From contig BCIN01000001.1 of the NCBI GenBank assembly GCA_039545335.1, positions 922,208 through 986,207 of the forward strand: a stretch of DNA of 64,000 nucleotides. Reading direction: 5' to 3'. This stretch comes from Kondoa subrosea. Its lineage: Eukaryota. Positions within the stretch are counted from its first letter, which is position 1; the number at the start of each line of letters is the position of its first letter. The notes beneath the pieces are model-generated. The model ran no database searches. It saw nothing but the letters and a program-made list of their open reading frames with translations, and had not been told where the DNA came from. This document shows, in pieces, positions 3,426 through 38,432 of this stretch. Position numbers and translations under genes: made by a program.

Positions 3426-4857
3426 ATGCACTTCACTACCGTATCATTCTTAGTCCTGGTGGCCTCGGTCTGTGCTAAAGTAACTGAATTACAGATCAGT
3501 CTGTGCCTACCTTAAGCTGCCCTTCACGCTTTGAGCTGATTTCATCATCAAATAGAAACCGTGAATAAGCCTTCAGAATGCTCTATACAGAGTCAGAATG
3601 GCGATAAATTGTCTATGCGTGTGTACAAATTGCGTACTGGAGCGAGTAAAAGGGCTGACATGTTCATGGGAAGACTACACCGGAACATTGGAAAGCGGCA
3701 GCGTTTTCGACTCGTCACGAACTCGTGGAGATCCCTTCCAGTTCACGATTGGTAGCGGAGTATGTCTTATCGCCCTATATAACATATATTGCTGATTGAA
3801 TGTCCAGCAAGTAATACAGATGAGTCGCTTTGGAGACTTGCAGGATTCTGTCTGATGCATCTCTTTACGGATGGGAGAAGGGTCTATTGAATATGTGTGT
3901 AAGTGCTATTGCTGGAAGCCCCAAGTTCTCAGCTGATAGATTAATAGATCGGCGAAGTTCGCGTATTGACAATCCCTGCAAGCATGGGTTAGTAACTGTT
4001 GTTTCATTGCTCGAATATCAGCTGAAAGTATCGTAGGCTATGGCGCGTCAGGCTACCCGCCAGTGTGAGCAGCTTGTGTTTTCATTACTCGCGCATCTGA
4101 TTATGCGCAGCATACCCGGTGATTCTACCTTGATCTTCGATGTCGAGCTCCTGGATATCCTCGTATGCTGTCCAGCCTATGATTTTTCGGTTGCTGACTA
4201 GTGACAATAGAACCGGAAGGCGCCCTCATCTGTCGACGGGCCCGATGTCAAGAAGGAAGTAGAGGTACGTTGAATCTTGCCCTTTTTGTTGTAGAGCTAA
4301 ACAAGGATCCAGGACGCTATTGCTCAAAATCACATTGTCATCTTCAGCAAAAGTTATTGCCCGTGTAGGCTTCACTCTCGTTTGTGCTTGACCTTTCTAA
4401 TATGTCAATGCAGGGTCGAAGAAGGCCAAATCAGCTATAGCAGCCGTACCAAACAAGAAGTCAGAGCCAAAGATCTTTGAGCTCGATCTGCTAGGTGAAG
4501 AAGGGCAGCAAATGCAAGCATACTTGCTACAGAAGAGTGGGCAGCGGACTGTACCTAATGTTTGGATCGGTCAGAAGCATATTGGAGGTGCGTTGGTCGT
4601 CTTGTGCCTGGTTCTAGCTGATCTTGGAACAGGTTCCGATGCGGTATCTGCTCTGGTCGAGAATGATCAACTAGCTAAACTGTGCCAAGGGTGAGCCGTG
4701 TCCATGAGATGATGTAATTTCGCTGAAGTCACGTAACAGTTCATCTGGTTCGTACGGCATGCTGCATTATGGAGCTGGAGCTGCTCTTTTGCTTGCTGTC
4801 GGTTTGGGCATTCGCGCGCTCGGTGGTAGTAAAGGAAGAGCTGGTAAAGAGCCTTGA
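3426..4857 (+). CDS. Secretory-pathway FKBP-type PPIase fused to a monothiol glutaredoxin and a C-terminal TM segment
   Basis: 13 hand-spliced exons. Signal peptide [80 protein letters not shown]. Grx: [47 protein letters not shown]. Confidence 0.85.
3820..3868 (+). other. AT-AC intron with U2-type signals (FKBP-Grx gene)
   Basis: CAG|ATGAGT...CTGATGCATCTCTTTAC|GGATGG, 49 nt; removal gives QVIQ-GWEKGLL. Confidence 0.85.
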
Positions 4858-5002
4858 TCATGTACGACTATGCTCTAGTCGGTCAGCTGATCTGACTCAC
4901 GGCGGATAGCAGAATCATTGAAATTGCATTTACTTACCAGATGTTTGTTAGCAAGACACGACTTTTTCGAGCCTTGGTCTGATTCGGTCTATGGCAAGCT
5001 GA

Positions 5003-6280
5003 CTAGACTCGTGTCATCGCTGTTCTTCCACCTCGAACGGTTATATTCTTGTCGCAGCACTCGCAGCAGATTGACCTTGTCACCTGTTTTGTCGATTGCA
5101 TCGGACTGGACTTGCTCAGGACCATCGTTGAGGGCGGGCTGTCACGATGCTTTTTTACCGCTGTTTCCCTTATGTCTTTCAATTTCTCGTTTTGTTTCTT
5201 CACCTTAATTGACCGACTCTATTTCTCGTTTTCTTTGCCCTTGGTTGACTTACGCCAGCTCCAGTCATTGGCGCAGCTTCACGATGTGCTAACGAGGTCG
5301 GGTCGCTTAATTGCTTACTAGCATTTCATTTCATTCGCAACGGACGTGCGATATGTGCTGATACGTTGCTACGAGCATGGTCGCGTGGAAAAAAGACGCT
5401 CGCACCTCAGCGAGGAGCAAAAAAAAAAGACAACCGACGTGAGCAGGATTTGAGCCTGCGCTCCCAGAAGGAAACAGCTAATTCATTCGAGGCTGCCGCG
5501 TTAACCACTGCAAAGGATGTTAGAACAAATCGGGTGTCTAAAGGAGAAAGCACTTGCCTCCGCCATCACGCCTCTTACGCCACCGGAGCATAATGACCCC
5601 GGTGAAATTGAGATTTTTGCACAGAATGCTCTAAACAAATCTATAAACATAGGTTGAATTTTGTAGGACATACTGACAAGCCCAGTGGGCGACCGTACTT
5701 GCAGCACTGTCCGAAGGATGTTGAGGCTGAGGCTAAAGTGCGGCGGAACCAGCGCACTCAGCCAGTGCATCTTGGCGCAACTGGGCACTCCTCCTCACGA
5801 TTCGAAAACGCGTCGCGGTATCAGTGCCCTGTCTGTAACAGGTAGAGTCTGTTGGGGAAAGGCATTGACAGATGACTCACGGGTATGTGTTGTTCTAAAG
5901 TTGACCTCCAGACCATCCCAAAGCAACACGAAAAGGGCTTCGCTTCACTTGTCTGAAATAAGAAGTCTTTATCGTAACCGCTTGATTTAACGAGGGAGAG
6001 AGTCCAAAGAGAAGTCTATCAAGAGTTGCCAGTGCAAAGGGAAAGATACTCGCAGTCGCGGTTGGAAGAAACGTCGACCAAAATGCAGTTTGGAAAGACG
6101 TGCTGGCCAAAGTCGAGCGTCAAGGCTTCAGTACACCTATGTTCGACCTTTCAAACGGCAACAAGACCTCATGTTGTCAACCTTCCTGTTCTGTGATCTT
6201 GCATCTCATATTTGAAGGCAATCTACGTTGTTCGCATGACCTTGTAATACATCTGGAGCCTGCAAATGCACTATCATGCA
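5003..6280 (-). other. Unresolved locus, possible lineage-specific spliced gene
   Basis: Minus-strand splice-like signals (e.g. GTGAGT at 5880) and short ORFs (5003-5203, K/R-rich), but I could not build a consistent model. Confidence 0.2.
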
Positions 6281-6401
6281 TCAGATCTTCCCCGACGCGC
6301 AACTTAGACTCTTCATCCGAGTCGGACTCTAACACGCGTAATGTATTCTCGAATTCCCCAGTCAACAAATAATGCAGCTATGGCTTGTCTACCGACTCAA
6401 T

Positions 6402-8468
6402 ATGGGAAAGAAACTAGAAGCGCGGCCCTATACAGGAATCAAAGTCTATATCGTCGGAGCTGGCGTATGAACAAAACTCCCCTTGTTGATTCGGGCTCAT
6501 TGCGATACAGTTCGCCGGACTCGGCTGCGCTCTAGAATGCTATCTGCAAGGACATGAAGTGGTCGTGCTCGAATCATTCCCTGAACTGAAAGTATTGCAA
6601 GTAGTCCATCAGCTGTGCTAGCCCGCACTTACTTTTATAACAGAGGAGATATCTTGTCCTTTGGCCCCAATGCAGGACGTATCTTTGATCGCTGGCAAAT
6701 TGGTTTGTAGAAGGATCCTCCGCCTTCAGGACTAGCTGATCTTGTACTAGGCGATGAAATGTGGGAGGTTTGTGCGAAACTTACCCACTGGCCAATTGTA
6801 GCCTGGGACGGGAGAACGATCCTCAATGAAGAGCGTCCTCAAATAGAGTTTGGGCACAGGTCGTATAATGGACATAGAGGCGAAGTGAGTACAAAGGAGA
6901 TTCCCTGTGGTCTATTGCTGACCTTCCTGTTCCGTAGCTTCATTCTATCCTTTGGCACCATGTCTTAGATCAAGGAATCGAGATCAGATGCAACTCGAAA
7001 GTTTCAGAGGTGAGCCAACAAGGGCCTGTGAAGCGCCTCTTACACCTGAATTGACTGGTCGAAACAGTACTGGGAAACAGAAACAGAAGCGGGAGTGATC
7101 TGCAACGGAGAGAAGTTGACAGCAGACGTAGTCGTTCGTATTCTGCAATTCTATGCAGAGGGAAAGCTTACAAGCCGTATAGGTTGGTGCAGATGGTGTT
7201 CGATCGAAAGCAAGGACTTTGGTTCTGGTGAGAGACTTGCCCTCTCTCTCATTATCCATCTGCTGATAGACTCTACTCAGGGCTACGAGGGTAGGACATT
7301 TTGCCGAATCACAAACCTCGTATTGACACAATGAATAGACGCTTCGAAGAGTTCAGGATATGGTAAATCGCTACCATCTACCTCACTGCCTAGCTCACAT
7401 CTATACAGCAATCTATCGAACTTGGTTTAAAGCGGAAGGAACTGGCTTTGCAGAAGATCCACTCACTAACTGGCTTGTCAAAGACGAAGATCAATTCTGC
7501 ATGTGGTTCGGAACAGACATCCACTTTATTGTCAATGTACTCAATAAAGGCAAAGGTTGGTCGCTTCTGAACCATGCTCGAATCCGACTAATGACCTCTT
7601 AGATGTGTGCTGGGTTATGACGCACAAGGTGTGAATATTGTCCTCCATCTGATTCCGGAAGCTCAAACCATCACTAGGATGAGCATGAAATAAAGGAAAG
7701 CTGGAGTCTGCCTGGATCTGTGGAAGAAGCAGCGAAACTACTTGAAGGCTGGGACCCTCGTACACTTGCGATCGTTCGCAAAGCACCGCGTGTCTTTGAC
7801 TGGAAGGTAAGACGCGAGTCAGCTAGCCAGAGCTATATACTTATTTCGTGACATGTATCTATCTACTCTCAGCTGGTCTATAGAGATCCTTTGCCTACAT
7901 GGATCTCCAAGCAAGGTCGCCTCGTACTGATTGGGGATTCCGCTGTAAGTGTCTTTCGCAAGCCTTTATCTACTCTTCCTCATTAGAACGAAGCATCCTT
8001 TCCTACCTACGAGCATTCAGGGCGCTAGTCAAGCCATAGAAGATGGTGTAACGCTCGCAGCGACCTTACGTTTGGCAGGCAAGAAGAATGTACCTTTAGC
8101 AGCTCAAGCCTTCGAGAAGATTCGCTATCCACGAGTCAGGCGTGCGCAGAAAGGAGGAGAAACAAACAGGTGGGTCTCACTCGCTTTCGCATCTGTTGAT
8201 TGCTTAACTGAATACGTGATGAAAAGGGATACATGGCATAAAGCTGATGTGGAATTTGCCGTTAAGAATCCCGAATCAGTCAAGATTCCGCGAGAAGAAT
8301 GGCTTTTGGGCTTTGAGTAAGTGCTCCTCGTATGAGCTGTTATTCCCACGCTGACGTGTTCTTAGCGCTCTGAAACACACTTACGAAGTTTTCGATTCCG
8401 TCAAGCAGGATATTGAGACGAATGGTTATCAGCTACCGACATTGCCTCCAATAGTCGAACCCTCGTAG
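6402..8468 (+). CDS. FAD-dependent monooxygenase (salicylate hydroxylase/MAK1-like)
   Basis: IVGAGFAGL Rossmann motif, VGADGVRS, LIGDSAHPFLPTSIQGASQAIEDG; about 15 introns, including a GC-AG intron at 6597-6643. Confidence 0.92.
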
Positions 8469-8573
8469 CAGTCTCGTCGAGTATAAAGGCCTGTGTGACG
8501 TGTCATGCTTTGTATCATCATTTTTGTACACTTGGGATGGGCGTGGAAGGGGGACTAGGGACTGGTTTTCATT

Positions 8574-9425
8574 TCATTTTGCTTCATTTGCATCATAACC
8601 CGGCTCATCTTGTAATTGACCGTCGATCACGTTCTCGCCCGAGTCCTGTGTCACTGTAATGAGTTTTATCACTTGAGTTGCGATTACACAGGTACTCACA
8701 TCGAATTTGATGTTCTTGCCATGCTCGTTCTTTAGCGCATTGGCAATGTATTTCGTATGCGTGCCAGTAGCGACCAGTTTGTCAGTCTTTTCGCTAAAGA
8801 TGTCGATACGAGTGAATGCTAATGTCTTGCCTGCGTTCAGCAGATGGCCTTCACACTATCATCCCAAATCAACGCCATATACAACTAGGAATGGTGAGGA
8901 AAGACTTACGCGAATTGAGTCTCCGGGACTGCCAGCACCACGAATGAAGCTGATCCGGAAATCAGTCTTACTACGCATTCGATTTGACAAGACCTACGTG
9001 ATTGACATATCAGTGCTTCTGTAGGTTCCATCAGCAAGAGAGTAGTGACACGACAGCGGAAACGTACACTCCTGTCATCCATAACCCCTGACTGGACAAA
9101 GCTAATGAACCCATAGTGTCGACGAGACTTGAAATAAGACCTCCATGCAATCCATTCAGGCGATTCACTAATCATCAAATGAGCGATCGAGAGAAGAAGA
9201 TATGCTTAGACTTACCATTGTGCTTTTGAATTTCCATGCTTGCAATCACTTTGCCCGGTCTGGCTTTTGTAATGACAAGATTCTTCATACAGACTGCATC
9301 GTGACCGCCTTTGTTGACGAAATCACGAAAGACCTGCAGCAATAGCAGGTTGAGAGAGGGATCTGAAGGCAAATCCAAACAAATGAAGTCACTTGTTGAA
9401 CAAATCGCAGAGAAGCACCAGACAT
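8574..9425 (-). CDS. PaaI/ACOT13-like hotdog-fold thioesterase
   Basis: Spliced: MSGASLRFVQQVFRDFVNKGG..NRLNGLHGGLISSLVDTMGS..TGVSTDMSITF..GKTLAFTRIDIF..ATGTHTKY; 6 introns. Confidence 0.9.
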
Positions 9426-9851
9426 GATAGAATTCCACTACAGCAGTAGCAGGATAGATGGAAACTAAAGAGAAGAGTGGCTAGTGAGCGTCTGTCCTCG
9501 GAAATAGAAAGATCACGGTTAACCTCGAACCAAGCTTTCATCGAAAGTAGCGAAAGGGCAGGCAGCTCGCCTGCTTCACCACCAAGCACAGATACCTGAG
9601 CATCTGATAGAGAGATCTGCGCTGGCGCTTTGAGATACCAGGTCCTGCTCGCTGCGAAGTGTATTGGGCGTACATACACCAAGCTGGACGCAGCACTTTC
9701 CCGCATACTGTGATCTGCAGCTGCTGCTCTTCGGATGTCTGCTGTTGCAACGCAAACTCAACATGTACATAGCAAGGCTCGCAACATGACCAGGACTTCC
9801 AGAACATCTTTGATCTTAGAGGAGAAAGGGCCGCTCAGCAGAGATAGATCA

Positions 9852-11551
9852 ATGCCAATGTTGGAAGATCACATGGAAGATCTAGTCAAGTGAGCGGAGG
9901 TATAGATGAATGTCTGTGCTTTGGGTTGACTCTCATTTTGCAGACTACCCATTTCTGACGAATTACGCTCAAGTCGACTCAAAGGCAAAGGTCCAGCATA
10001 TCAGAGTCGTACACCAGAATACTTCTTGCCATCTACCGCGCGAAGACCTTCACATCATGCAGAAGAATCGCTTGGTCGCGCTATTCCTGGCTCTGTCGCT
10101 TATTCGCCAGGTCTGACGCGAACAATGTCAAATTCCTCTGTCAGCTCAATTCCAAGACCCACAGTATCTGCATCACCAAGAAGACCTTCAGATAGCTACC
10201 CAGAGAACGAGCTTTCGTATCACCCAAACGAATTTGATTCGGAAACCTTATCCAGCCCAGCTATCAGAGCATCTAAGATCCCGCGCTATGGCAATCACAC
10301 ATTCAGCTCCCCGTATACCCAAACTTCATCTTCATCTAATTCATCACTTCATACTGTACATTCCGACTCTGGAAATATGTCTCCTCCTGCTCTGCCTCTG
10401 ACTAAATCGCGGCCATCGTCAGTCAACTCTGTAGCAGGGTCTGCAAATATCTCCTTCCCTACTCACGAGCAAGCTTCTGCTCCAAGCACGCCTAGACACA
10501 GTGAAGAACGAAAACGTCAACCACTCAGTTCAACACAAGGCAATTCCAAGACTAGGTGTTTATCTCGAGATCTGGACTCTTTATCTCAAGCTTCACCTGT
10601 AAATGGAGTCAAGCGAACTCCATCAAAATCGACTCATTTCCCACCGCAACGTAAATCTTCTCTTTCTCGCTCTACTCCCGCTTCTTCATCTACCGAACCA
10701 GTAACTCCCAGGAATGAAACTCGAACAAGAGCTGTGACGGGAAACTTGACATCTAGAAAACGACCGGGAATCAACAAACCTTCTACTCCTTCTTCTGCTA
10801 CTTCTACTGGCGGCAAATCAAGACCTAGATCTATCTCTACTTCTTTACTCAGCGATTCCGATTCACCTGCACCTAAAGCACCTTGGGAAAGAAACGCTTC
10901 GCCCTTACTGTATAAGTCGGACAGGGAAGCTGATTTGGGATTGGTTGAACATGAGGGTTTTGAAAGTCCAATACCTAGATCAAGCTCTAGAACATGGGAT
11001 GAGTATGTCGAAACCTTGTCTATTGTAGCAGACAGTATTCTGACGGTGGGTCTGACAGCGTCATCATTCCTACTGTAGCAAAACAGATACATCAAAAGAT
11101 GTTAATGGATCAACCGGAATCGGATGACTTGATTGAAGAATACACTCGAGATGGGATGCCCGTTCGATCAGTCACTATGCCGAGTCTACTTTCTTCTCGT
11201 TCCATTAACACTCAAGCAGAACCTCTTCAACAAAAGACAGAAGATGCACCTTTTCCTTCTCCTCAGCCTATTCCTTTACCTCCGTCATCTAGTGGAGTTC
11301 AAGAAGATATCGAATTGCAAAGGCCTTCCCCTCCTCCTCCTCAATTGAAACGAACTGCTACTTTACCAGAACCGATTCAACCGAATCATGTTGAAGCATG
11401 GCAACAACCTGATTTAGCCAGTCCTAGGGTAGCTAAACGGACTATGGAGCGCCAACAAGGTCCGTCCGCGCTGGGGCAGAATGCGCAAGCGAAGAAGGCG
11501 AAGGAGGAGAAAGATGGTCATTCCGGTGGTTGTAGATGCGTCATCAGTTAA
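9852..11551 (+). CDS. Ser/Pro-rich disordered protein with C-terminal CaaX box
   Basis: Three exons; low-complexity S/P/T; ends GGCRCVIS*. Confidence 0.7.
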
Positions 11552-12037
11552 GGAGGGAGGAGTGAGGGTGAGCAATTCCATCCTTGACGATACTCTTGAC
11601 TGATTCTCGCTCAGATTTTTATAGTAGTTCCATTCATGAGAAGTCGTTCAAGCACATCATTAGTAGTAGTCATTGCGTTCACTTTAATCCACTGCGAGAC
11701 TCAAGTCATGTTAGCATTTTCTGGTGTGCTTGACTCGCAGATCCCGTTGTTGTCCCTCTATCTTTCCGTCTGTCGTGCTGTTCTCTCTTGGAGTCCTTTA
11801 GCAACTTGGACTGCAACTAGTGTTTGATTTCGTGCTATCGTGCTGAGGCAGTACGAAAGCACCGCTGCTATCGATCAATCAATATAATTAGATTACGCAG
11901 ACCACTTGAAGATCTAAGTCTATCATGAAACATGCAATGCAATGGACACAAGCGATATACCATGACCACAACAGCCTGATAAGCTTCTCTGCCGAACCCG
12001 TAGACTCGAGCACCCCAAGTTGCTCTTTCGTGAAACA

Positions 12038-14140
12038 TCACATGAACTGAAAATGAAAATCAGCGGTCGTTAAATTGCAGCAGGTAACAGGACAAACTCG
12101 TCCAGCTTTGCTACCGAACCCTAATCCCTCTCCACCATCTCCGCCCTTGATCTTGCTTCGACCGACGTAGACGAGCGAATCCTTCGGACGGGCAATCAGC
12201 ACAAATATTTCCGGCGTGACAAAAGTACTCACGACAAGGCCAGCAACAGTCAATACACCTCCGACGATAGCCAATGTATCAGTCAAGAAGTGAGCCAAGC
12301 TTTGTCTAGTCTCCTTTTGGATAACCAGCATAGGTGAAATTTCGTAAGAGAAGAAAAGACCAGGTACGCCGGAGAAGCCATGCCTGTACATAGATCGCTA
12401 TCCCTAAGTAAAAAATGTACTTTAGAAGACTGCTACACACGATGTTTGATGACCTTGATCATCTTTTCCTGGTTTGTTCCCTTGCGATAGATCCCGCTCA
12501 TACTCAGTTACAGAGTACTGATGCGTGTTCAGTTGATCGCCAGAAAGAGTGACGAATTGAGTGGACACGACTTTGAGGAAATATTGAAACATGTAGTTCG
12601 CTGTGTGATCAAATAGGCATTGAATCAGCACAAGACTGATGTTGGTGATTCGAACGCACATTCTTCAGTATGTGCTCGCACTCCATCCAACGGGTTGACT
12701 ATTCCCAAAGCCTTCTTCAGTCGATCAGCTTCTTTCGGCGCTAACTCTTCGTTCTCTGATCCGAAAGAGAATTTGTGGATGCTGTAAGCGTGACGAAGAA
12801 GAATCCATCAGTGCCACACTGAGAACGCTGAACATCGCTTACATATGCCCAAAGTCATGATTGTTACCTCCCTGCAAGTAAGGTACCAAATCGTGAACGT
12901 GCATAGCATTAGATTGGAACGATCGCCCTGGCGAAAGATGGAAGTTGCCAATACTGTAAGCGAGAGATGGACTAAGCATACAGATGCGGCGCAGCCCTTC
13001 TCTACATACACTTTGTTGACTCTTACTCGACCAGCGATGTTGCAACCTTCTGTAGCTTGTTCCGCAATCTTTTCTGACCATCCTTCTTTAACGCACTGTA
13101 ATATTCGCGACCATGTTAACTCAGACTGAGCAAGGAGATCGTGTTCTTACCTGATCTATCGTATCTGGATTCGTAAAACTCCATCCCCTTCTGACATAGG
13201 CTTCTCGTACTTCCTCTGTTGAGATGCAGTGACCAAATCAGGTTTGTGTAATCCTAAATGAGCAAGCACACTGACCGCAGGTATTGCAGCAGCCGCTCGG
13301 AGGGGGCGTGCCGCCATAACAAGACCCACAGACTGTAAGTGTCTGTTTCAGGACTCATCACTCTATGAAGGCTTGAAAAACGACCTACAATTCTCATCTT
13401 GCGAAGACACAGAGGCCACTCGTTCCAATTCTCCTTTCAGCTCTGTTTGATAGGGCCAACGTTAATAAGCTGTACACTCATAGGACGAATGCCTCAGCAA
13501 ACCTTTGCCAGTTGGCGCATCGAGCAGATTACCAGTCTTATCTAGTCTGGTCTTGGTCATATCATGATTGACATCTAGACGACTGTTACACAAAGAAGAC
13601 AAGGTACTAGAGCCGTGGACGAACCATTCTGATGTTCGCCTGAAATGTCCATGATATCCACGCTGAGAACTGTCAAAAGATTGGATGGCCTGATCAGTTG
13701 AAGTCTGACCAGAGCATTCCTTCCACCGACGATAGCAAGGCACTCTTGGGAAAGTGACATTGAGGTTGACGACTAATTTCTCGCCTCTTGATTTATCTAC
13801 TACTATCGAAGGTTTCATTCGTACTTGACGATACTCAAGGAATTCGGCTAGTGTGAGTGAAGCGATGAGGAAGAAGGAAACTAGGGAGACTGTTTATACA
13901 GCAGCTTGAATCACTGGATTTGCGCAAGCGAAAGTAGACGAACGCATTCCGCCAAAGCCTGTCTTGACTTTGACATCGTCCATTGTCTGTCAGAGAGTGA
14001 TTCCTAAGCTGCTGCTATACAGCTAACGAGGCCAATCTCTGACCTTGCCAAACGCATCGAGACCTCTCAATCTAAATGCGGTTAATCATCAGCTACGTGT
14101 CTATAGCAATCAGATGTAATGCTGACCCTCCGCGACCCAT
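12038..14140 (-). CDS. ERV46: ER-Golgi vesicle protein Erv46/ERGIC3
   Basis: LRGLDAFGKTMDDVKVKT, CGSCYGG, CCNTCEEVREAY, GNFHLSPGRSF, YMFQYFLKVVST, GVPGLFFSYEISPM, LAIVGGVLTVAG. Confidence 0.95.
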
Positions 14141-14515
14141 TTTGAAGCTAGCACTTGGGCTTGGACGAAAGATTCAAAGTAAATTCACGACGACCAAGTC
14201 TCGACAAAAGCTGTAGCTATCACGGCAAATCTGGTATCAATACAGCACACAGCTTGTTCTTCCAAAGAGCCAGTCTAGAGCTTCGGTAGTTAGAGAAAGG
14301 CGCGAAACCTCAGAATCTTGCTAGAGTTAGCAAAAGCTACAAATTTTGGCACGTGCTGCTGAACTTCCCCTCAAAGATTCGCTTCATCTCTTCTCTTCAC
14401 TCATCGACTTCTCTGCTTGAGATCCCCTTACATCCTACCTCGTACTTTCCATTCTTCTTTCTTCTCCGTGCTCAGCTTAGCCAGTCTCGTAGTCCGGCAA
14501 TCTAAAATTCTGAAT

Positions 14516-16877: not shown

Positions 16878-18333
<1,456 letters not shown>

Positions 18334-18628
18334 CTTTGTATATGGAAGAGAGTAAGGAAAACTGCAAAGGTTGCGAATAACTTATATGCTCGGTCTCACG
18401 CGGTGGGCGACTTCTCGCTCTCTTCGGATGTACTACGATGTCTCGTTCTTTCAGAAGTGGACTTCTAGCAATGCGGCAGCCTTCCGCAACTTTGCTTACA
18501 ATCCATGACGCGCTATGAGCTTTCATTATATATATGTTTAATGGTATGACAATGGAAGCACGATAAAATGACCCAAAACTGAACAAACTCAACGAAGCAG
18601 AACTTGCATAAAACCTGTCTTCTGCCTT

Positions 18629-26800: not shown

Positions 26801-27598
26801 AGAGTAGCGATGGAAGGATTGATTTGAAAAGAGGTGTACCAGTAGGAAATGAGGTTCTTTAGTGCTGTTTCGAATAACCGAGATCGTTCGACAGCTTTGG
26901 CATGAGTGGTAGGAGAGAAAGAATGAAAGGCTTGAATTAGGTGCAGAGGTGTTTTCGAGAGTAGCCGAGCCTGTGCGAAAGAAGTCATAAGCTATCTGTC
27001 CTAAGGTATGATATATAATATTATAAAGACGAAAGCAAGAAGAAGAGCTGCATGTCGTGAACCTGACAAGCTGCGGCGTGAAACTGCAAGTGAGCAGAGA
27101 CACCCGTATAAACAGAAATGCTTCAGCACGCAGCAGAAGAAGGAGATGAGGCGATGAGGAAAAGAGAGAAGCAAACGATAATCACCTTGAGCAGATCATC
27201 ATTGAGTAGATCGTTTCTGATCTTGGTCGCGACAAGCAAGCAATAGACGTGCAATCGATGTGTTTCCGATCGTAACTTGCGTTCTATGCCAGAGATACCT
27301 TTTCGCCTTCAGATGCAAGATCAGCTTCCAATCACAATAACTTGGCTATGACGATCGTAAGTTTCACATACTTTGGTTTCTTGGATTTCGTGAATTGTCC
27401 AGCCGTGCCATTTTCCAAGACGATTTCAATACCTTCAGCTTGACCATCAGCAGCTTCTGGGTCGATGACTTTCTTCTTTGGTGCATTCGAATCTTGATCA
27501 GGTAAACCAACTTCCTCAAACTCCATTTCCTCATCCTCTTCATCATCCTCATCCTGTGCACCTAATCTCAAAGCAGCTGGGATCTCTTGCCCGCTCAT
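23882..27598 (-). CDS. RAD4: Nucleotide excision repair protein Rad4/XPC
   Basis: QLFVSLCRALGIGARLVVSLQP, YWAEVY, DVTARY, FKNHPLYALERHL, GLYANWQT, AVTGFEFHKRRAVP; acidic N-terminus. Confidence 0.93.
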
Positions 27599-27671
27599 TC
27601 CTATCCTGGTCCCAGTCTGGGGTATATTTTTCGAATCAAGTGCTTGTTCCAGTTCAACGAGTGCGAGCAAA

Positions 27672-28551
27672 ATGTCAAACGCGATTGTCAATGGTACGGC
27701 TCAAGGGCAAGCGAAGAAGAAGCGAAGGAGAAAGAAGCGCAGGCTATCCATTTCCAGTTCCAGCTCGTCCAGTTCCTCAGAGGAAGAAAATATTGTAAGT
27801 TCCATTTCAATTTTGCTATGAAGGTGTGCCGTATGCTTACATTAATGACAGCCTACAATAACAACAGCAAAAGAAGCAAGCTCGAGTGAAGAGGACTCTT
27901 CTTCTTCTTCTGAATCTTCATCTTCTTCATCTTCCTCATCTGATTCTGAACCTGATATTACATTACCCTCTTCTAACATCCCTACTGCTTCCACTTCCCT
28001 CTTAACTCCTTTTGAAAGACCAGAATTGAAGAACCGTCAAAGAAGTCCTTCACCACCTTATTTCGGTTTCCCTGATTTCTCTTCTTCTTCGACTAAAAGA
28101 TCAAAACCTATTTTATGGGGTGAATTACCAGAAGACAACAACCCTAAAGAACCTACTGAGGAATTAAAGAAACAATGGGCTGAGGAACAAGAAAGTTTAA
28201 AGAAACATTACCTTGAAGTAGTAGTTAATCGGTTTGGGAAAGAATTGGATGATATGCGTAAAGTAAGTTTTCATCACTCTTACTGATCTACCTACCTGTA
28301 TACTGATGGTATTGTAGGAACCTGGTGTAGCGGATCGATTAGGCCTGTTGATCTCCAGTCTCAGTCAGGGAGCGAGTCTCATGGAAACGGCTCAATTAGC
28401 GGAAGAGATGTCAAAGGATATTTGGAGTACGGATAAGAGCAAAGGAACGGCTAGAGAAGTTGGTCTGGAAGCGCTCAAAGGGAAAAAGTCGGAAGAAGTC
28501 ACACAAAATGGAACGCAACAGCAGCAGCAAGACGTAGACATGGAGTCATAA
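27672..28551 (+). CDS. RSA3: Rsa3-domain ribosome assembly protein
   Basis: Basic NLS-like KKKRRRKKRR, Ser/Glu tract, then HYLEVVVNRFGKELDDMRKEP..LLISSLSQGA matching the Rsa3 pattern; 2 introns. Confidence 0.7.
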
Positions 28552-29201
28552 AGCAAACACTTCGATGACTTACAGACTGAGCGGGCAAGCGAGGCGGAAA
28601 GATATGATGCCCTAGCGCTTGAATACTCGTCAGATGTGAAGATCGAAGCTGTCAATACTGGCCTGGCTTATTCAATAGCTCAAACTCCGAGACTACCAAG
28701 CCCAAACACTTCTGTTCGCTTCACCTCCATTCTTCTTGCTCGACTACTTTCGCGCAACGAATCTTCAGTATAACCACCTTTAGCATTGATATCGTGCTTC
28801 TCATCTATCTACCTCACCACGCTTGATACTCAGCTATGTACACCATCAAGATCTTACCTTCTCCAATCTTCTAAAGCGTTTGTTAAAAGTAGTCTAGTAA
28901 AGCGGTGATTGAACGATTTACGTATAACTTAGAGACTATAGATTAAGGATAGATTGAGATTCCAAAAAGCCCTGTGTGCCCGAGATCATACTGTGCCGTT
29001 GCTTCCGAGTCTGTCCTATGCATTATTTCGGACTTGTCACTGTAATACTTTGATCACGAACCGTTCAAGATTTCGCTCTTCAGGTCACAAGTCGGTTCTC
29101 CCAGAGCTGCACTATCGCATAATCAATGCTTATTCAATTGCTGGAAACGACAGCAGGTCTTACGAGCTTCTTTTAGACAATTCTCAAGCACATCAATAAA
29201 A

Positions 29202-30128
29202 ATGGGTGTTGAAGTGCGTCTGGTTGATCTTGAGCTGGCACCTGAGCCTCAGGTGAGAACCATAATGTACAGGTCGAATCTCTATCTGCCGGTGATGGCA
29301 AGAGTGAGTCTCATGTTTAGCGATTTATCGTGAATTGGATTTCTGACGTGCTTTTGTGATAGATTTCCCAAAGAAGGGCGATACGTACGTCTGGATCATT
29401 GCTTTCTCGATACAGAGCTCTAGCGTCATTCTGCACGTACAGCGTCTCTATGGTGAGCTATTGTCATATTAGATCAGCCGAATCGAGACTGATCACTTTG
29501 ATTGGTAGCACTATGTTGGCACTCTTCTAGATGGATCAAAGTTCGATAGCTCCAGAGACAGAGGTACTCCTTTCGTCACTCAGATCGGTCTGTCCCTTTT
29601 TCGCTTAAGATCTGAAACTTGACTGAATACCGAATCGAAAGGTGTTGGACGAGTCATCAGAGGTCAGTCGGCAGCTCCAAATGTGTACAATATAGCTGAG
29701 AATCCTAACATAGGTTGGGATGAGGGCGTTCCCCAGCTTTCAGTTGGTCAAAAGGCAGTCTTGACCTGCTCACCTGATTAGTGAGTTCTTCTGTCCAAAA
29801 ATCGCCGAATCTATGCTTATTGCGTTTTTGCAGCGCTGTATGCTTATTCTCTTGACATTGGATCGCGAACTTATCATGCTCTACAGTATGATAAGTTTTG
29901 CTTATGTTCCGGAAGTTGTGATCTGACCTTACCGTGTGATAATTACGCGCTCGCGGATTTCCCCCTGTAATTCCGTAAGCGTGCTCTGATTGTACTGATT
30001 GGCAGCTCATGTTGATTTCAAATGTATAGCGCCAATGCTACGTATGTCATAATTTGGAAGTGTTCACCTTTCGTGCTGATTTCATCTGCAGCCTCAAGTT
30101 CGAAGTCGAGCTACTCAAGATCAACTAA
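29202..30128 (+). CDS. FPR1: FKBP12 peptidyl-prolyl isomerase, 108 aa, 12 coding exons
   Basis: Exons of 12,31,22,10,79,21,67,4,4,28,12,37 nt sum to 327 nt: [108 protein letters not shown]. Confidence 0.95.
29891..29946 (+). other. AT-AC intron with U2-type signals (FKBP12)
   Basis: TATG|ATAAGT...CTGACC...ATTAC|GCGCTCGCGGA, 56 nt; removal gives YG-ARGFPP. Confidence 0.9.
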
Positions 30129-30817
30129 ATGTCGAAAATATCAACTTCTGCAAAGGGAAAAGCATGATTGCATTCACATTAGAGAGTATTGGCGAGCATA
30201 TAAGGGCTGTCGATTGAATATTGTGTCTCTATGCAATCTTACATTAGACCGTTTCATATGCATGCAATTCAAGTGATCGGAACGGTTACGATCATCTAGC
30301 TTATTCTTCTAGTCAATGACCAAGCAAACCATATAACTCGCAAGTAGACTTAGACACGGCGTCAGAATATCGGAAGTTTGGAGTGGGTAAAAAATCTTCC
30401 TAAATTTTTCGCTTGTTTGCCGCATCGATGACATTCAAGCAAATGAGGCAGTCAAAGAGAGAGAGAACAGCATGGTCATAGCGATGAGTTCAGAAGGCGA
30501 TGGATTCAGGAAAGAGACGGTGACAACTAGCTCTGTCGAGCGAAACGAAAACGCAAAAGTAAAAATCTCTTGCTCGCTCTGCCATATGCACTCGAGCAAG
30601 CAGAAGCACAATGCCGTAAGCATGGAAGAAGATGTAGATGGGCTGGCTAAGAGAACCAAATTCCACCTCCACTGTACATTGTTGCTATTCAAAGAGAGAA
30701 CTGAAGAAGGAAAGGAAGGTGTCGGACTGGCGAATGTACTGCTACTTGTGATTGTGGAAATCTGATAATGCAAGTCCCAAGCCTGGCCAGAAATACAAAT
30801 CAACTCCAGCCAAGCGT

Positions 30818-31886
30818 TTCTGCAATCCGGATCAATATTGAACAAGCCAAATGAAGCCCAAAAGCACTGACACTTCTTCTTTGCAACGCCGACAGTCTTT
30901 CCTCTGCGTCCAGTGGTACAGGTGTGTTGACCTCTGACTCTGAGACCCCAGTAGTGACGAAGACCACGATGGTTGCGGATCTTCTTGAGTCTTTCTAGAT
31001 CTTCACGCATCTTGGAGTCAAGACCGTTTGATAGAACTTGGTAGTCTTTGCCATCGACGATATCCTTTTGTCTGTTCAAGAACCATTTAGGAATCTTGAA
31101 TTGAGCAGGGTTTTGCATAATGGTGACAATTCGTTCAAGTTCATCTGAGTTGAGCTGACCAGCACTGTGATAAGCAAAAGGGTACGGATCAGAATCGTTC
31201 TGATGAGCCATCCTTTGCCCTCACCGCTTGTTGAGATCTACATCGGCCTTGCGGCAGACAGTGCACGCATAACGACGTCCAACACCCTTGATTTCAGTCA
31301 AGGCGAACCTGTTGACGGCGTCAGCCTGAATCTATTGGCAGCTGTTCAAAGACTTGCATGATCTTCCTTCGTCCATCGACGCTATCTCAAAGGTCAGCAT
31401 ACGAATCGACCTGGGACGTTTAGAATGTGCGTACTTTGTGTTGAGAAGTCGGAGGATGTGTTGGAACGGTGCATTTCTTTCTCTCCTTTTTTCATTTCTC
31501 TCCTCAAAATAGTAAGCAATCTGACTTACGGGTCGGGCGCTACCTGTTAACAAGAATCAAACTAGTCAGCATATATCCTGACAGGTGAGGAATGTATATG
31601 TAAAGGCTTTGATGCCGGGCAGATGAAATTATGCAGGAGCAGAGGTTTGGCGACAAAAGCTAGCAGATTTGACAATCCCACCACTTGCGAGCTCGGCATA
31701 TGTAGCGGGCGGGCTACTGCAGGCAAGAGCTGGGCTGCAGACTCCATGCAGGCCGAAATGGGTATATGCAAGTATTTTGACATTCGACATGCCAAATTCT
31801 GCTAAGTCGGGTCGAAAGCACTTGCAGAGCCTGACTATCTTGCGTGCAGAGCCATAGAAAGGTGCATGGAGACTCACGAGACTCAT
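30818..31886 (-). CDS. RPS18: 40S ribosomal protein uS13 (S18)
   Basis: [66 protein letters not shown]; 6 introns including a GC-AG (31309-31357); stop split T|AA. Confidence 0.97.
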
Positions 31887-32027
31887 GTTGGCGATGGACG
31901 TTCAAAAAGGTCAAAATCGCTCAATCCAACCGAAAATTTCCGCCACCACTTTACTTTTCGCGCAGAGATGAAGCACTCAAATTGGACATAGGTAATATAC
32001 TGCATACTTCTGTCCAAACGTTGCATG

Positions 32028-33760
32028 CTATTGCTGCCTCAATTTAATCGGCACAGCAGCGCTAACAGGCAAAGCAGCCAGTTCCTTCTCAAACTCATCT
32101 TCCCCTTCCGCTTTCCCAGCAAGCAACACTTCCAACTGACCGAGCATCGTTTCCCCGTTATCCAAGAACGTTTGCAAGCGATTCATCTGATCTCGTCCTT
32201 GAGCTAAAGAAGCAGTCAATTGATCTCGGAATTGAACGAGATCCGTGATTTCTTGCGAAGGTAGGTTGCTGTAAGATGAAGGTACAGGAGAAGATTGAGA
32301 ATAAGTAGAAGGTGCTTGACTTGGGTTGCGAGCAGAGTTATCAACTTGCGGTGATGGATCTTCTCCTATAGCTGCCGCTGCTAAAAGAGCATCCATTCCC
32401 GTTTCGCCTGCTGCTGAGTTTTGGCTGCGCATACGCTTGAGAGCTGGAGTTTGTACTTCTTCATCTGGAATAGGTGAAGCTCGCTTTTTCTCTGCTTTAG
32501 GCGCACTCGCTTCGGCTTCAGCTGCTGCTTTATTCTGTGCTTTCACCTGTACAAGGCGCTTTCAATTCATCTGATATACAGATATGTACAGCGCACGTAC
32601 ACTAGCCGGCAAACGCTTCCGTCGCTTGATCGTAGGCTTTTTCAGACCATTCGGTCGATGTTGATTGTGCAACTTGAAGTACAAACCTGTCTAAAGTATT
32701 AGCTTAGAAAACGCTCCTAAGCAACCAGTACTGACCACAAGCCTGTGAAACCCCAGCAATTGTTCAGTCAAATTACACGACTGAAATCAACAGGGCTCAC
32801 ATTACAGCAAGTATTGCCATCTGAATCTCTTCTCCAAAGGGGTGTAGTCCCCGTTCCACAATTAGTACAAACCATAGCCGAAACAGCACCTTCTTCTCCG
32901 TTTTCCAAATTCGCCCAAGCAGGAACTGGTGCTTTTCCTTTCGCAGTAGCACTACCACGATCGTTCGACGACATCGAATTTTTGTCCTCAACTTGTTGTT
33001 GCTGTTGATGATTAGGACGTGCAGTCTTGGAAGAAGCGTTGTGCTTGTTGTTGTAAGCTGGACAACCAGTGCAAACGTTTTTCCCTCCTTGACCATTGCA
33101 ATGTCCATCACCCGGACAAGAACCAACTGGAGGTTCTGCTTCTCTCTTCTTCGAAACAGGTTTCGATGATGATGAAGTTGAGGAAGAAAGATAAGGACTG
33201 GGAGGTTGATTAGCTGAATTTGGTTGACGAGGTGGAACAATTGGAGCTGAGAAAGCTTGCATAGATCCAGCCGAAGTGGATGGCAATTGAGTAGGTGTAT
33301 ACCTGGGCGAGAGCTGCCTAGCCATGTTCTGCTCTTGAGTAGCTATGCAAAGATATACTGTCAGGTAAAGTCAAAAGACCAATCAACTGGGAAACCCACA
33401 ACAACCCTGAATGACAACAAGTCAGTAGTGATCAATGTAAATACGAGAAAAACTGACAAGACATAAAGGTCTGTCATGATTGCCTTTATGCGCTTGAAGC
33501 ATACCAGTCAAACCGCAACGACTGCATTGTGAGCCATGTGTAGCAGGTGATGCCGCGGCTGAGCTAGCAGACAAGTAGTAGTTACTGTTCGCGTTGGGAG
33601 AAGAGCCCAAGACTTGGCCGTCATGCGTTAGGCGAGGTAAAGATAGAGGTGCAAATGAAGAAGCAGGAGACAGCGAGGGCAGATAATTCAGACCTTGGTT
33701 ATTGCTATGAGCTGTACTGAGCTGAGCCCACAGGCCAGGCATAGATTGAGAGTTATCCAT
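32028..33760 (-). CDS. Iron-responsive GATA transcription factor (SreA/Urbs1/Cir1 type)
   Basis: Cys-rich GSCPGDGHCNGQGGKNVCTGCPAYNN, then GATA finger [38 protein letters not shown]; C-terminal coiled coil. Confidence 0.9.
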
Positions 33761-34005
33761 GGTTTTGAGGCTGCTGACCAAATGGGTTGTTTGACCAATA
33801 AAGTGCACTATCAGCTGATCAGACTCCTCGATACTGTAGCTATACGTGATCGGACACACGGTAGCGGTTTATCTGAGCGCTTGAGCTTTTGGTTGTTGGC
33901 AGATAGCGGACAGAAGTCAGCTCGGCAGATGGCCAATCACATTTCGACTAGATGATAAAGTGAAGATATGCAGCTCATGAGTGTGTACAATAGTGTTACA
34001 TTTGA

Positions 34006-37000
34006 TTACCAAGTCCCATCAAACCTTTCAAGGGTCGCTTGCGCTTCAGATGCATCTTTCTGCAAACGCCGGCACGTTCAGCTTGCGATCAAACAGCTTT
34101 TGAATGAGCTTACCTTCGCTCGCACACGTTGATAGAAGATAGGACAATCTTTACTCGTGCATAGAACATCCTGAAGCAGAAGAGGTTAGGCACCAATTGA
34201 TGGTAAAGCAGGTCGGACTAACATTATGCAGCGAGCCTTGGCAACGTTGACAGCAAACCCAGAGTCGGGAATAGGCAGTCTCGTAGCCAGTTGTCGAGAT
34301 CATCTATGAAACGTTCATTAACCACCGTTAAAGAGCTAGATCAGGCGGCTAACCTGTTTCTGATATAATTCTGCAGTTCTTGGCTGACAGTTCTTGCAGA
34401 TAGCAGTATCTACTCTCCGCTCAGCACCAATCAGTATCATACTCTGATTGAACATACTATGTCCTTTCTTGTTTGAGCTCGGTAAAGGTGATTTGCAGCC
34501 GAGACAAGTCAACGTCTTCTTGACGAAACCCATCAAACCGCCTGTAGTCGGTGTTGCGATGGATACAGTACGGGTGTGAGCACCTCCAACTACCGAAATT
34601 GTCAGTACAACACAAGCGCACTCTTAGAACGCCAACATACGCAGAGAATTGGCTTTATCGCCCAAGATAGGTTCAAAGATTCTAAGTAGAGGTTTCGAGA
34701 GCTGGTTATCGAGATAGTAGCGCGTATCAATAGGCAAGTTGTTTTCCAGTACATAGAGCGGATCTTCAGACTTCTCGTATGCTTTGGCGTCTTTTGTGCC
34801 TTTGATGATCACATAGGCCACACGATCTCCCAGTGCAGGTGCAGAACCTGTGAATTATGAAGCTGAGAAAGTGCTTCAACACATAATCGCCCGTCCACTC
34901 ACCGGCATCACGAGTTTTCATTCGTTCTGCCAATTCTACGTGAGCTTGTTTTGCAGCGTAATCAGTCTTGGCTAGAGCTTTAGTGATGACAAGCTGAGAC
35001 AAATCGATCTTGTTCTGCAGTAGATCCGAAATGACTTGTTTCGTGTATCTGGACAGATATGAGTACTGGCCTCTGTAAAATCACGAAAGACTAACTCTTC
35101 AGCTGCCTTGACATCTCTGTCAATCAACATCTTCTTGAGGCAAGTCTCGATGACAGTCACTACAAGTCGACAATTATCACGTCGTACAGTCTTGGCGAGC
35201 AATTAGCTTGAGGAAATGCGAAGAGGAATGGGCTTTACCTCGATACCCTTGGCATCCATTTTGTCATACTTCTCTGGCTTTGTCCAATACAGACCAGCAT
35301 AACGCTTCTTGCTAATGAGGAGATATGGGAAGTAGACTTTCTCAAACTCCAGCTTGATAGGCTTAACGAAACCAGCTGTGACTTTTTCTGCTGCTTGTGC
35401 ACCTGTCGGTAAAAGCTTTCATCAGATGACGCCCATCTCAAAAGGCATCAATCCCAACCGAGTTCCATAGCTTGAGCGAGATCTTTGCACCCAAACTTGA
35501 CCATGACTGAATCGGTATCACCATAAATGACTTCCGCATCGTGATCATATCCATTGTCGGTGTTGAAAGTACTCTCGACTTGCTGTTTAGTGTACTCAAT
35601 CATTTGACGACCGAAAGCAGTAACACTAGTCGAGATAGGTAGACAAGGAAGTTTGCCGATAGTTGCTCCAGTGAAACCGTATACGGAGTTGGCACTGATC
35701 TGTGCGCATGAAGAAATTAGAACCAAGCATTGTACTTGCATAGTGTGACTCTCACGCACCTTCAAAGCCAATTGACGGCCGTCCAACACAGCTCTTTTGA
35801 AAGGATCGGTCTCGACTTTCAGATCAGCTCGAGCACGTTTACGAGCCGCCAGTAGATCCTCGAGTACAGTTGGCAAAAGACCTTTTCGCTTTGTAGACTT
35901 GACAAAATAATCTATACCACATTTCAGCAAAGACTTCTTGTATCGCGCGAAGGAAGCACACCATTGTTCGGCGTGACAATGTAATCGACATCTTTGACCA
36001 GTTTGAGTGGCTCGACGGACTTAGCATCCAACAAAGTAGTGTAGCAAAGATTATGAGCCATCATAATGGAAGGGTATAGCGAAGCGAAATCGAGCGTAGC
36101 AATAGGCACATCGTAGTAGCCTTTGGTCGGTTCAATAACAGTAGCACCTTCGTATTGTTCGTCGGATCCTGTCAGTTGCACATTTATGACACAGCTCTAG
36201 CAAGCAGCATCAAAGGTTCACTGACCTTCGCTCTTCAGTGCTGGTACAAGATAGCCCTGCTCTTTGGCTTTACGGAATAGCTGAGAAACGACCTTGATCT
36301 GTTGACCACGAGACAAGAGGTAATTGAACGGAACGCCAGTCACACGAGCCATTTCTGTGTAATTGATGAAGCACATAAGCTTGTCGAGCAGTCTTTGAGG
36401 CAGGTAAGCGTCCTGATGAATCATATCAGCCTGGTCGACTGTGTATTGAACTTGCCGTTACCTTCAAGCAGTAAACAGCCAAACGGCGACGAGATTCAGG
36501 TCCACCATTCTGCAATTCTGTGATGATAGAATGATGTACATCTTCCTTCTGCTCTCCTGTTCAGACGAAATCGAACTGACATCAGCTACATGCTGATACA
36601 TCTTGATTCCACGAACCTAAGAAATGTGCACAGACGGAATTGAGGGTATAACTTCTAAGCTTATAATCACGATGCATGACTTGAAGCAGATCCAGCTGTA
36701 ATCTTCCATCCATCTTGGTTTCTTTAGAATCTCGATTTCCGTAAGCTTTACTTGAGAAATGCGTGTCTTTAACTTCAGTCTTAACTCGTTTCAATCGACC
36801 AAGGTAAGGGAATTCGGAATTTGCTTTCAAAGCTTTGGCTCGATCCATTAAATAGGGTAAATCGAAATTGGCAATATTGTAACCAATAACCAAATCTGGA
36901 TCAACTTCTTCAATGAACTTGCGCCATTCGAGCAACATTTTCTTCTCATCGTCAAATTCGAGTACTTGTGATCCGACGATATGAGCACAGGTGTTAAGGG

Positions 37001-38432
37001 TAAAGACATTTCGAATGAAAGGTTTGGTTTCGCCTGTTGGTGGCACGTCTAAGCCATGCTCTGACGCAAAGCTTCAGACTTCACTGACCTTGCCTAGTGA
37101 CCATATTGGCGATTTGAATGACAGGATCTATTTCGGCTTCCGGGAAAATGCCTTTGCGTCCAGCGCATTCCAAATCGAAGCTCAAAATACGTAATGGAGC
37201 AATCTTGCCCCATTCTCCATCAGGTGCATGAGATACGACATCTTCTGAGCTGTTACACGGGAGTCAGATTATATGTATAATTATTTACTTCAGGTGCACG
37301 CTTACGAGCAATCCATTTCGATTTGACAAAGCGAGATCTTGGAAGCTTCTGATCGTAAAGTATACTTGCCAGCAGGTATTTCGATCCAATTCATGCCCAC
37401 GACCTGTGAGAAATAGGGCTCTTTGAATACTGAATTTGTAAGCAAACACGAGCTGTTCTCACATCTTTATCAATCATAAATCGCAACAGGTAGGCGATGT
37501 TGGACTCATAAGTCAAGAATTCTCCCTTGAAGAGATCTCTGAAAGAGCATTCGCCTCGTTCAAACAAATGTGCAAAGATCACACAAGATAAGTAAAGCTC
37601 CTTTTCAACAGGCAGAGGAAGACTCATTTCGAACTCTGGGTAGATTCTTCTGGTCTGTGACCGTGACCTTGAGAAAAGGAACTTTGTCGTCCCCTTTGAA
37701 ACCCCAAAGCGAGAGTTTGTTGGCTACGGTTACTGATCGAACTGAAACTCCTCCTCCGACACCAGAAGCGGCACCCTGTGGACAGCAAACAACTAATTGA
37801 CATACGTACGTACGAGGAACACTCTTGCTACCCACATTGAGATAGTTCACAAAGTCTTTGCAATCCTCATTTCTGAAACCTTTAGGTGCAGCAACCCAGA
37901 AATAGGGAAGAAAGTCTTTGACATGGCAGAGTAACGAATGACCAGCTTCAGTAACACCAAACATGCGTAAAACAGGACCTTTGTTTGGTTCAGAGTGTTC
38001 TTCTATATCAATTTGCTGGAATACTGTTCCCAAGCCTTTAGCTATGATATATTGAAACACATAGACGCGTACTAAGCTTATCTGTGTTTGCATTGATCTT
38101 CCCCAGTGCAGGACGAGCCCATGCTTGCTTTTCTACCGAAGCTAAGAGAACACATTACAAGCATGAGTCTTCTGAATTATAGACAAACAGGAACAGGGAC
38201 ACAGCTTACTACCAGATTCACCACCGCTAATGCGAGCTAAAACGGATTCGAAGCTGCTTGGCTGGACTTGATCCATTCCTCCTCCTTTAGCTTTACCTTT
38301 GCCTTTGTTTTTACTTGCAGTCTGAGGTACACTTTCAGCAGTCTCCAGTTTCCTCCTCTTCGCGCTTGGAGGTGACAAGACTTCAGTTTGGCCATCTATG
38401 GGTGCGTTCTCTTTTGATCCTGGCGACACCAT
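34006..38432 (-). CDS. POL3: DNA polymerase delta catalytic subunit
   Basis: [50 protein letters not shown]-terminal CLGC..CKNC and CQRC..C..DCPIFY; about 21 introns. Confidence 0.98.
37570..37627 (-). other. AT-AC intron with U2-type signals (POL3)
   Basis: CGAA|ATGAGT...CTTTGCAC|ATTTGTTTGAA, 58 nt; removal gives LPRVRN-LFERGEC. Confidence 0.75.

Follow-up and report, generated by a model that had tools for sequence, protein, structure and literature searches.

The U2-type (type II) class of AT-AC introns was defined by Sheth et al. in 2006, and the human figure given there is 15 introns, or 0.008% (PMC1557818). According to the same source, a G-to-A change at intron position +1 in yeast is rescued by a G-to-C change of the last base. 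In a separate study, Caenorhabditis elegans, which is without U12 small nuclear RNAs (snRNAs), is described as retaining 42 AT-AC introns or more (Iwata and Gotoh 2011, PMC3033335). Among basidiomycetes, an AT-AC intron in the Ganoderma lingzhi gene chr6g0094801 (DNA polymerase delta zinc-finger domain) is reported as verified by reverse transcription-PCR (RT-PCR) and Sanger sequencing; the supplement, where it deals with these introns, gives primers and not the names of the 13 AT-AC genes (PMC11590231). Both the U2-type AT-AC class and an AT-AC intron in a basidiomycete polymerase delta gene are already known. Here, we analyze three introns with AT-AC ends in a 64,000-nucleotide (nt) stretch of contig BCIN01000001.1 from Kondoa subrosea (the window; G+C content of 45.8%, zero N), which lie in the genes for an FKBP2-like protein, FKBP12, and the catalytic subunit of DNA polymerase delta (POL3). 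This is one window only, and it was picked out for these very introns. On the sequence evidence, the three elements are best read as real spliceosomal introns that belong to the rare U2-type class, a class known before; the POL3 intron, in addition, appears to be old and of U12 origin. We put the probability of this explanation as a whole at about 0.8.

Three introns with AT-AC ends in conserved genes

The POL3 gene occupies positions 34114 to 38432 of the minus strand (assigned by homology and Pfam, with approximate ends). Its 143-amino-acid exon returned 2,074 protein matches, the best of which are 83-84% identical and all of which, among those listed, are basidiomycete POL3, and it matches Pfam DNA_pol_B_exo1 at 3e-38. 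The AT-AC intron of this gene (37570 to 37627, minus strand; 58 nt, ATGAGT...ACTTATC..GTGAT...TTGCAC) is placed by homology and by its orthologs in phase 1 of an Asn codon that follows a conserved VR. Splicing at the AT-AC ends yields LPRVRN|LFERGEC, gap-free against the 109 public POL3 homologs that we examined (from P0001-P0120). The only in-frame GT-AG alternative, of 34 nt, inserts 8 residues that are seen in none of the 109. Alone among the three, this junction of the window could be shifted by 1 nt to the right (TG...CA) and yield an identical mRNA; the orthologs are unambiguously AT-AC.

FKBP12 was modeled by hand at 29202 to 30128 (plus strand), as a 327-nt coding sequence for 108 amino acids with 12 exons (12, 31, 22, 10, 79, 21, 67, 4, 4, 28, 12, and 37 nt) and 11 introns of 49-59 nt. 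The model aligns end to end, with a gap-free conserved core, with 49 homologs found by an exon reference, and does so through PDYAYG|ARGFPP. A single workable path leads to this segment: a 4-nt exon (29834 to 29837, plus strand), without which neither the open frame nor the conserved DYAYGARG is obtained; then, beyond a GT-AG intron, another 4-nt exon (29887 to 29890, plus strand); and, directly 3' of it, the AT-AC intron (29891 to 29946, plus strand; 56 nt, ATAAGT...CTGACCTTACC...ATTAC), which by homology interrupts the Gly codon of AYG in phase 1. From the last in-frame stop to the conserved exon that follows there is no AG, which leaves only a non-AG acceptor for this intron. Other paths through the region fail: a single long intron brings an in-frame stop or a frameshift, skipping the first micro-exon brings a frameshift, and a nested intron (stwintron) cannot produce a non-AG acceptor.

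The FKBP2-like gene lies at 3426 to 4264 (plus strand), as given by a gene-finder model, alignment, and Pfam, with an approximate 3' end, and encodes a signal-peptide-like N terminus followed by an FKBP domain. We identify it as FKBP2-like because exon 3640-3792, flanking the AT-AC intron, matches Pfam FKBP_C (E = 6e-7) and because the first 130 residues of the model align gap-free to 10 FKBP-family (FKBP12-type) proteins, through GSGQVIQ|GWEKG; a search with a 51-amino-acid stop-free reference from this gene found no homolog at E <= 10. A 12-nt micro-exon encoding QVIQ (3808 to 3819, plus strand) stands directly 5' of the AT-AC intron (3820 to 3868, plus strand; 49 nt, ATGAGT...CTGAT...TTTAC), which homology places in phase 0 between QVIQ and GWEKG. 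Left unspliced, the segment meets a stop codon. The sole frame-correct GT-AG alternative found by hand, of 25 nt, breaks the conserved QVI.GW.

Some further features of the two FKBP genes may be recorded here. Each of their AT-AC introns directly follows a micro-exon (of 12 nt in the FKBP2-like gene, of 4 nt in FKBP12), and that of POL3 does not. At the shared VI[QR]-G-W site, the introns of the two paralogs are 1 nt apart (3819/3869 in the FKBP2-like gene versus 29662/29714 in FKBP12): the former is AT-AC and precedes the Gly codon (phase 0), and the latter is GT-AG and splits it (phase 1). A glutaredoxin-like frame (VIFSKSYCP) at 4313-4857 (plus strand) closely follows the FKBP2-like gene, and the gene finder merged the two.

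We next consider the class of these introns, using as a canonical comparison set 32 homology-checked GT-AG introns from the same three genes. These have a median length of 53.5 nt (range, 46-68 nt), and the AT-AC introns, at 49-58 nt, fall within their range. The window donors (ATGAGT, ATAAGT, and ATGAGT in the FKBP2-like, FKBP12, and POL3 genes, respectively) match the major-type consensus save at +1, with a perfect TRAGT at +2 to +6 in 3 of 3 cases versus GTRAGT in 4 of the 32 GT-AG introns (Fisher p = 0.005); among the GT-AG introns called in the window by the gene finder, GTRAGT opens 31 of 148. Regular-expression tests for the RTATCC donor and the TCCTTRAY branch box were negative in all three introns and in 19 POL3 orthologs. 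We assign the introns to the U2-type AT-AC class because of these ATRAGT donors, the YAC ends, the ordinary lengths, and the absence of U12 motifs. The first-pass annotation thus stands on its central points, namely, that removal of three AT-AC introns restores conserved proteins (the alignments to homologs are gap-free, and no GT-AG alternative equals them), that their lengths are ordinary, that none has a U12 donor, and that a perfect TRAGT may offset the A at +1.

The motif by itself carries little of this argument. Strings of the form ATGAGT or ATAAGT, followed by 37-52 nt and YAC, occur 11 and 7 times in the window, 18 in all, where shuffled sequences lead one to expect ~16.6 and 9.4, so that the bare count is at or below chance (18 versus ~26). 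Coding or homology support exists for 3 of the 18, namely, the three introns; the remaining 15 are antisense to genes, intergenic, or overlapping with exons or canonical introns of gene models. A simple open-frame test did not discriminate among the 18, the exons being short. The significance comes from protein restoration, the concerted ends, and the orthologs, not from the motif. One of the other matches, 46131-46189 (minus strand), is out of frame. In this stretch (46125-46189, minus strand), a thioesterase-like gene keeps its frame through a GT-AG intron of 61 nt whose donor, GTGGGG, is weak. An ATAAGT...ATAC string at 18338-18385 (minus strand) has a pyrimidine-rich tail and a TTCCTTAC motif and stops 5 nt short of where the gene at 16878-18333 is predicted to start its coding region; it may be an intron of the 5' untranslated region or a chance match.

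An artifact, such as misassembled intron ends, a pseudogene, or wrongly traced junctions where other sites are used in vivo, would be suggested by two circumstances: the junctions rest on homology and not on transcripts, and the FKBP12 model requires two 4-nt exons, which is unusual. Yet both ends are altered in concert in 3 of 3 introns; once spliced, the products are complete and open and align to homologs with no gap; and the FKBP12 intron is without any AG acceptor. Independent metagenome assemblies repeat the AT...AC ends in POL3, and the published Ganoderma case is described as Sanger verified (PMC11590231). We consider an artifact very improbable.

The POL3 intron in relatives and its possible origin

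A scan of metagenome contigs with the 143-amino-acid POL3 exon returned 80 loci. An AT-AC intron is present at the site in 20 of them, 48 are intron-free there, and in 10 the site is not covered. Nineteen loci are split exactly at the site, and one more (L073) shows the intron through an in-frame read-through. All 20 introns start with ATAAGT or ATGAGT, end with TAC or CAC, and lie in phase 1 in the codon after a conserved [VI][RK]; in each case, removal restores [KR][VI][RK]|G.FE[RK]. The first 19 loci comprise 17 distinct intron sequences of 44-82 nt, with ATAAGT as the donor in 10 and ATGAGT in 9; one contig (L020) begins within the POL3 intron, which ends in TAC. The preference for a full donor match recurs in these loci, where ATRAGT is found in 18 of 18 AT-AC introns versus GTRAGT in 7 of 65 GT-AG introns of POL3.

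The nearest named proteins are those of Tremella, Cryptococcus, and Filobasidium for 12 loci and of Trametes, Russula, Suillus, Termitomyces, and similar genera for 7. In a FastTree phylogeny of POL3 (77 sequences, 596 columns, midpoint-rooted, single gene), the window protein stands beside Microbotryomycetes and Cystobasidium, and because of this position we take the window fungus to be Pucciniomycotina-like, as judged from this gene. Because the same site and phase are found in Tremellomycete-like, Agaricomycete-like, and Pucciniomycotina-like sequences, the POL3 AT-AC intron seems to be ancient, predating the split between Pucciniomycotina and Agaricomycotina. The first-pass annotation had proposed a peculiarity of this lineage; for POL3, this does not hold, since the intron is common to 20 Tremellomycete-like and Agaricomycete-like loci at the same site and phase.

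Public gene models bear the mark of the same intron. Of the 109 POL3 models, 34 are anomalous exactly at the AT-AC junction, with an insertion, a deletion, or a divergent stretch, and 17 of these 34 carry a VRD signature, as expected from reading through G|AT.... The earlier expectation that predictors restricted to GT-AG would fail here is borne out by these models. Because Polyporales-like and other Agaricomycete loci hold an AT-AC intron at the POL3 site, the verified intron of G. lingzhi chr6g0094801 very likely corresponds to 37570-37627, although the identity of the site is deduced from sequence comparison. FKBP12 differs from POL3 in this respect: the 20-odd basidiomycete FKBP12 models in the database show no anomaly at AYG|ARG. 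Because these models are clean, the AT-AC state of FKBP12 is probably not widely shared. A Mucoromycota-like FKBP12 homolog (P0157) has a 51-nt in-frame insertion, a retained intron, at the AYG|ARG site; its translation demands G at both ends of the insertion, and the intron there looks GT-AG-like.

At one further locus of the 80, the POL3 site holds an intron of another kind. Contig L031 (1,117 nt, 35% G+C; AT-rich and non-basidiomycete-like) carries at positions 112-187 a 76-nt intron at the identical codon position and phase, with a ATATCCTTT donor and CCTTGAC 10 nt before its AC end, and POL3 is otherwise uninterrupted over 834 nt. By sequence, these signals are those of a textbook minor (U12-type) intron. 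With a U12-type AT-AC intron in L031 and U2-type AT-AC introns in basidiomycetes at one and the same POL3 site, the comparison suggests a minor-to-major conversion in which the termini remained frozen; conversion in this direction is described as an accepted route (PMC10639083).

The branch region shows a further peculiarity. A branch-like CTTAY occurs near the 3' end in 14 of 18 POL3 ortholog AT-AC introns (L004-L008, L013-L019, L021, and L073). By comparison, 12 of the 65 GT-AG introns that POL3 has in these loci carry it (Fisher p = 5e-6, computed over phylogenetically non-independent loci), as do 14 of the 148 GT-AG introns of the window. Among the window introns, POL3 has CTTAT, FKBP12 has CCTTAC 15 nt from its end, and the FKBP2-like intron has only CTGAT. 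The CTTAY form may survive from the U12 branch box, or it may be needed for function.

A mechanism consistent with these observations would run as follows. The ATRAGT donor, which is major-type with A for G at +1, would pair with U1 and U6, and a perfect match at +2 to +6 would compensate for the weak +1. The branch region would be ordinary, and the 3' end would be AC in place of AG. At the second catalytic step, an A(+1)/C(-1) pair would substitute for the non-Watson-Crick pair of G(+1) and G(-1), and because one pair replaces the other, both intron ends would have changed together. At first, the POL3 intron was most likely of the U12 AT-AC type, and it would have been remodeled to major-type signals at about the time when Dikarya lost the minor spliceosome. 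Its AT-AC ends would have stayed frozen because altering one end alone would block splicing.

The same signals could be taken to mean that a surviving minor spliceosome removes these introns. AT-AC ends are typical of U12-type introns, L031 has such an intron at the POL3 site, and CTTAY or CCTTAC, recalling the U12 branch consensus, is present in 2 of the 3 window introns and 14 of the 18 POL3 orthologs. On the other side, RTATCC and TCCTTRAY are found in 0 of 3 window introns and 0 of 19 orthologs, and all have a U1-complementary ATRAGT donor. Two surveys report no convincing minor introns and no minor snRNAs in Basidiomycota (PMC10639083; PMC11347168), in keeping with the first-pass statement that Dikarya are generally considered to lack the U12 machinery. 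Removal by a minor spliceosome therefore seems highly unlikely to us.

Several points nevertheless weigh against U2-type introns with a U12-derived member in POL3 as the full account. The AT-AC junctions of this fungus are drawn from homology, and their dependence on the major spliceosome is deduced from motifs and from the published absence of minor snRNAs in Basidiomycota. The window gives no Rfam match at the gathering score and contains no snRNA gene. At the POL3 site, 48 of 80 loci are intron-free. A U12-type intron occurs there in 1 of the 80, and the step from a U12 origin rests on this one metagenomic contig of 1.1 kb. Human and mouse POLD1 are absent from the minor-intron tables that we searched; FKBP3 is present in them. 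Finally, the excess of CTTAY over the usual CTRAY is not explained by viewing these simply as ordinary major introns.

Density of AT-AC introns in the window

Our intron census came from a crude self-trained gene finder with its own calibration, run on the 64-kb window. It counted 210 introns in 34 gene models, which makes the denominator of the first-pass annotation (~220 introns) roughly right. The calls comprised 186 GT-AG, 6 GC-AG (at least 1 of them an artifact), and 4 AT-AC introns, with 14 in decoy classes; spread over 18 decoy terminal pairs, the last figure amounts to ~0.8 per class. The gene finder also made errors in the genes of interest, calling the FKBP12 AT-AC intron AT-AA, splitting POL3 in two, and fusing the FKBP2-like gene to its neighbor. 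A GC-AG call in POL3 at 36413-36455 (minus strand; donor GCAAGT) was rejected, as the alignment with homolog P0091 shows two surplus residues; the true donor is GTAACG, 6 nt upstream, and the intron is a GT-AG intron at 36413-36461 (minus strand).

The published share of AT-AC introns is 0.019% in fungal annotations (PMC7072748, Table 1), 0.014% in curated G. lingzhi according to the main counts of that study (13 among 92,107 introns; PMC11590231), and 0.0235% in curated Coriolopsis trogii (PMC13395996). Three among ~200-220 introns correspond to 1.4-1.5% (Poisson 95% interval, 0.3-4.4%), which is ~75 times the 0.014-0.024% of curated relatives, in one flagged window. At a rate of ~0.02%, ~0.04 AT-AC introns would be expected per window; the probability of three or more is then ~1e-5, and that of two or more further ones, given POL3 in the window, is ~8e-4. 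Two extra AT-AC candidates from the gene finder, both with ATGAGC donors, are doubtful: 50428-50482 (minus strand) is equally explained by an internal ATG in a Pro/His-rich protein, and 52385-52430 (minus strand) belongs to a weak model that is antisense to a stronger gene on the plus strand.

One interpretation is that this lineage has a raised genome-wide rate of AT-AC introns handled by the major spliceosome, at ~0.3-4% of its introns, either because its spliceosome is more tolerant of A(+1)/C(-1) or because ancestral minor introns were converted rather than deleted. Such a rate would add to our explanation of the three introns and not replace it. The excess over the published ~0.02% (3 in ~200-220 introns) and the two probabilities just given favor it, as does the FKBP12 AT-AC state, which is probably not widely shared given the clean basidiomycete models. 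Set against this are the single window, flagged for these introns; the phylum-wide distribution of one of the three; the doubtful standing of both extra candidates; and a census that is not sharp, with its ~0.8 decoy calls per class. A literature search, moreover, found no lineage with a comparable rate. Among the papers listed, none links AT-AC introns with Pucciniomycotina, Puccinia, Rhodotorula, Melampsora, or Microbotryum, and the passages retrieved from the Cryptococcus transcriptome paper (PMC3990503) give no splice-class numbers. We would give a raised rate nearly even odds.

Alternatively, the genome-wide rate may be ordinary, amounting to no more than a few dozen AT-AC introns, and three old ones may lie within 34 kb of one another by chance. 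The POL3 intron is demonstrably old and shared, curated relatives have 13-20 AT-AC introns, and very many windows were scanned, so that rare coincidences get reported. At published rates, however, two more AT-AC introns in the window have a probability of ~1e-3 or less, and the FKBP12 site is canonical-looking or intron-free in other basidiomycete models. Chance at an ordinary rate is, to our minds, a serious contender, if somewhat below an even bet. The boldest form of the proposal is that AT-AC introns make up ~1% of the introns in a Pucciniomycotina-like lineage, 50-100 times the share in any surveyed eukaryote, as converted fossil minor introns with frozen ends, a perfect TRAGT, and a U12-like CTTAY. 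We offer this as a speculation that is, at present, unlikely. If the local density did hold for the whole genome, the handling of A(+1)/C(-1) by the major spliceosome could be studied in this fungus as a natural system.

Comparison with known systems

New here is that the POL3 AT-AC intron is phylum-wide, is widely mis-annotated, and is matched at its site by a U12-type intron in L031. Its host gene, that for DNA polymerase delta, is essential and in wide use, and about one-third of the public basidiomycete models that we examined are broken at this conserved intron. Annotation pipelines that admit no intron ends besides GT-AG and GC-AG will go on giving wrong models for POL3 and, in the fungus studied here, for the two FKBP genes. 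The POL3 site also makes a long-standing idea testable in fungi, namely, that minor introns can outlive the minor spliceosome through conversion, with ends frozen by the need for a matched first and last base.

Among described introns, those of human SCN4A and SCN5A, in the SpliceRack set as presented in PMC1557818, resemble the window introns in their AT...AC ends, in donors that are major-type except at +1, and in having no U12 boxes; the borders of the U2-type AT-AC introns in this set are also said to be conserved over long times, as they are here. The differences are of host, size, and context, since the window introns are fungal, are 49-58 nt long, and in two cases lie next to micro-exons of 4-12 nt. 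They extend to frequency, with 0.003-0.008% of animal introns in the SpliceRack set versus 3 in ~200 in our one window, and to the kind of support, as dependence on U1, U2, U4, and U6 was shown for SCN4A and SCN5A, whereas the window introns are assigned to this machinery from their motifs. The AT-AC introns of C. elegans likewise belong to a lineage without U11, U12, and U4atac, as reported in PMC3033335, but that lineage is animal and ours is a fungus.

U12-type AT-AC introns share with the window introns their terminal dinucleotides and strong positional conservation, and in L031 one of them occupies the homologous POL3 site. They differ in having an ATATCC donor rather than ATRAGT and in the TCCTTAAC branch box at 10-15 nt, which is missing from the window introns. 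For the co-occurrence of A(+1) and C(-1), a mechanism is offered by the suppression of G1-to-A by last-G-to-C in the yeast actin intron, as related in PMC1557818; that case is an engineered double mutant, and the window POL3 intron is a natural, conserved one. The closest counterpart is G. lingzhi chr6g0094801, which, like the window POL3, comes from a basidiomycete and combines a polymerase-delta-type gene with AT-AC ends (PMC11590231). Where that study discusses it, the Ganoderma intron is treated as an annotation curiosity of one species; in the comparison made here, it would take its place as one occurrence of a phylum-wide intron.

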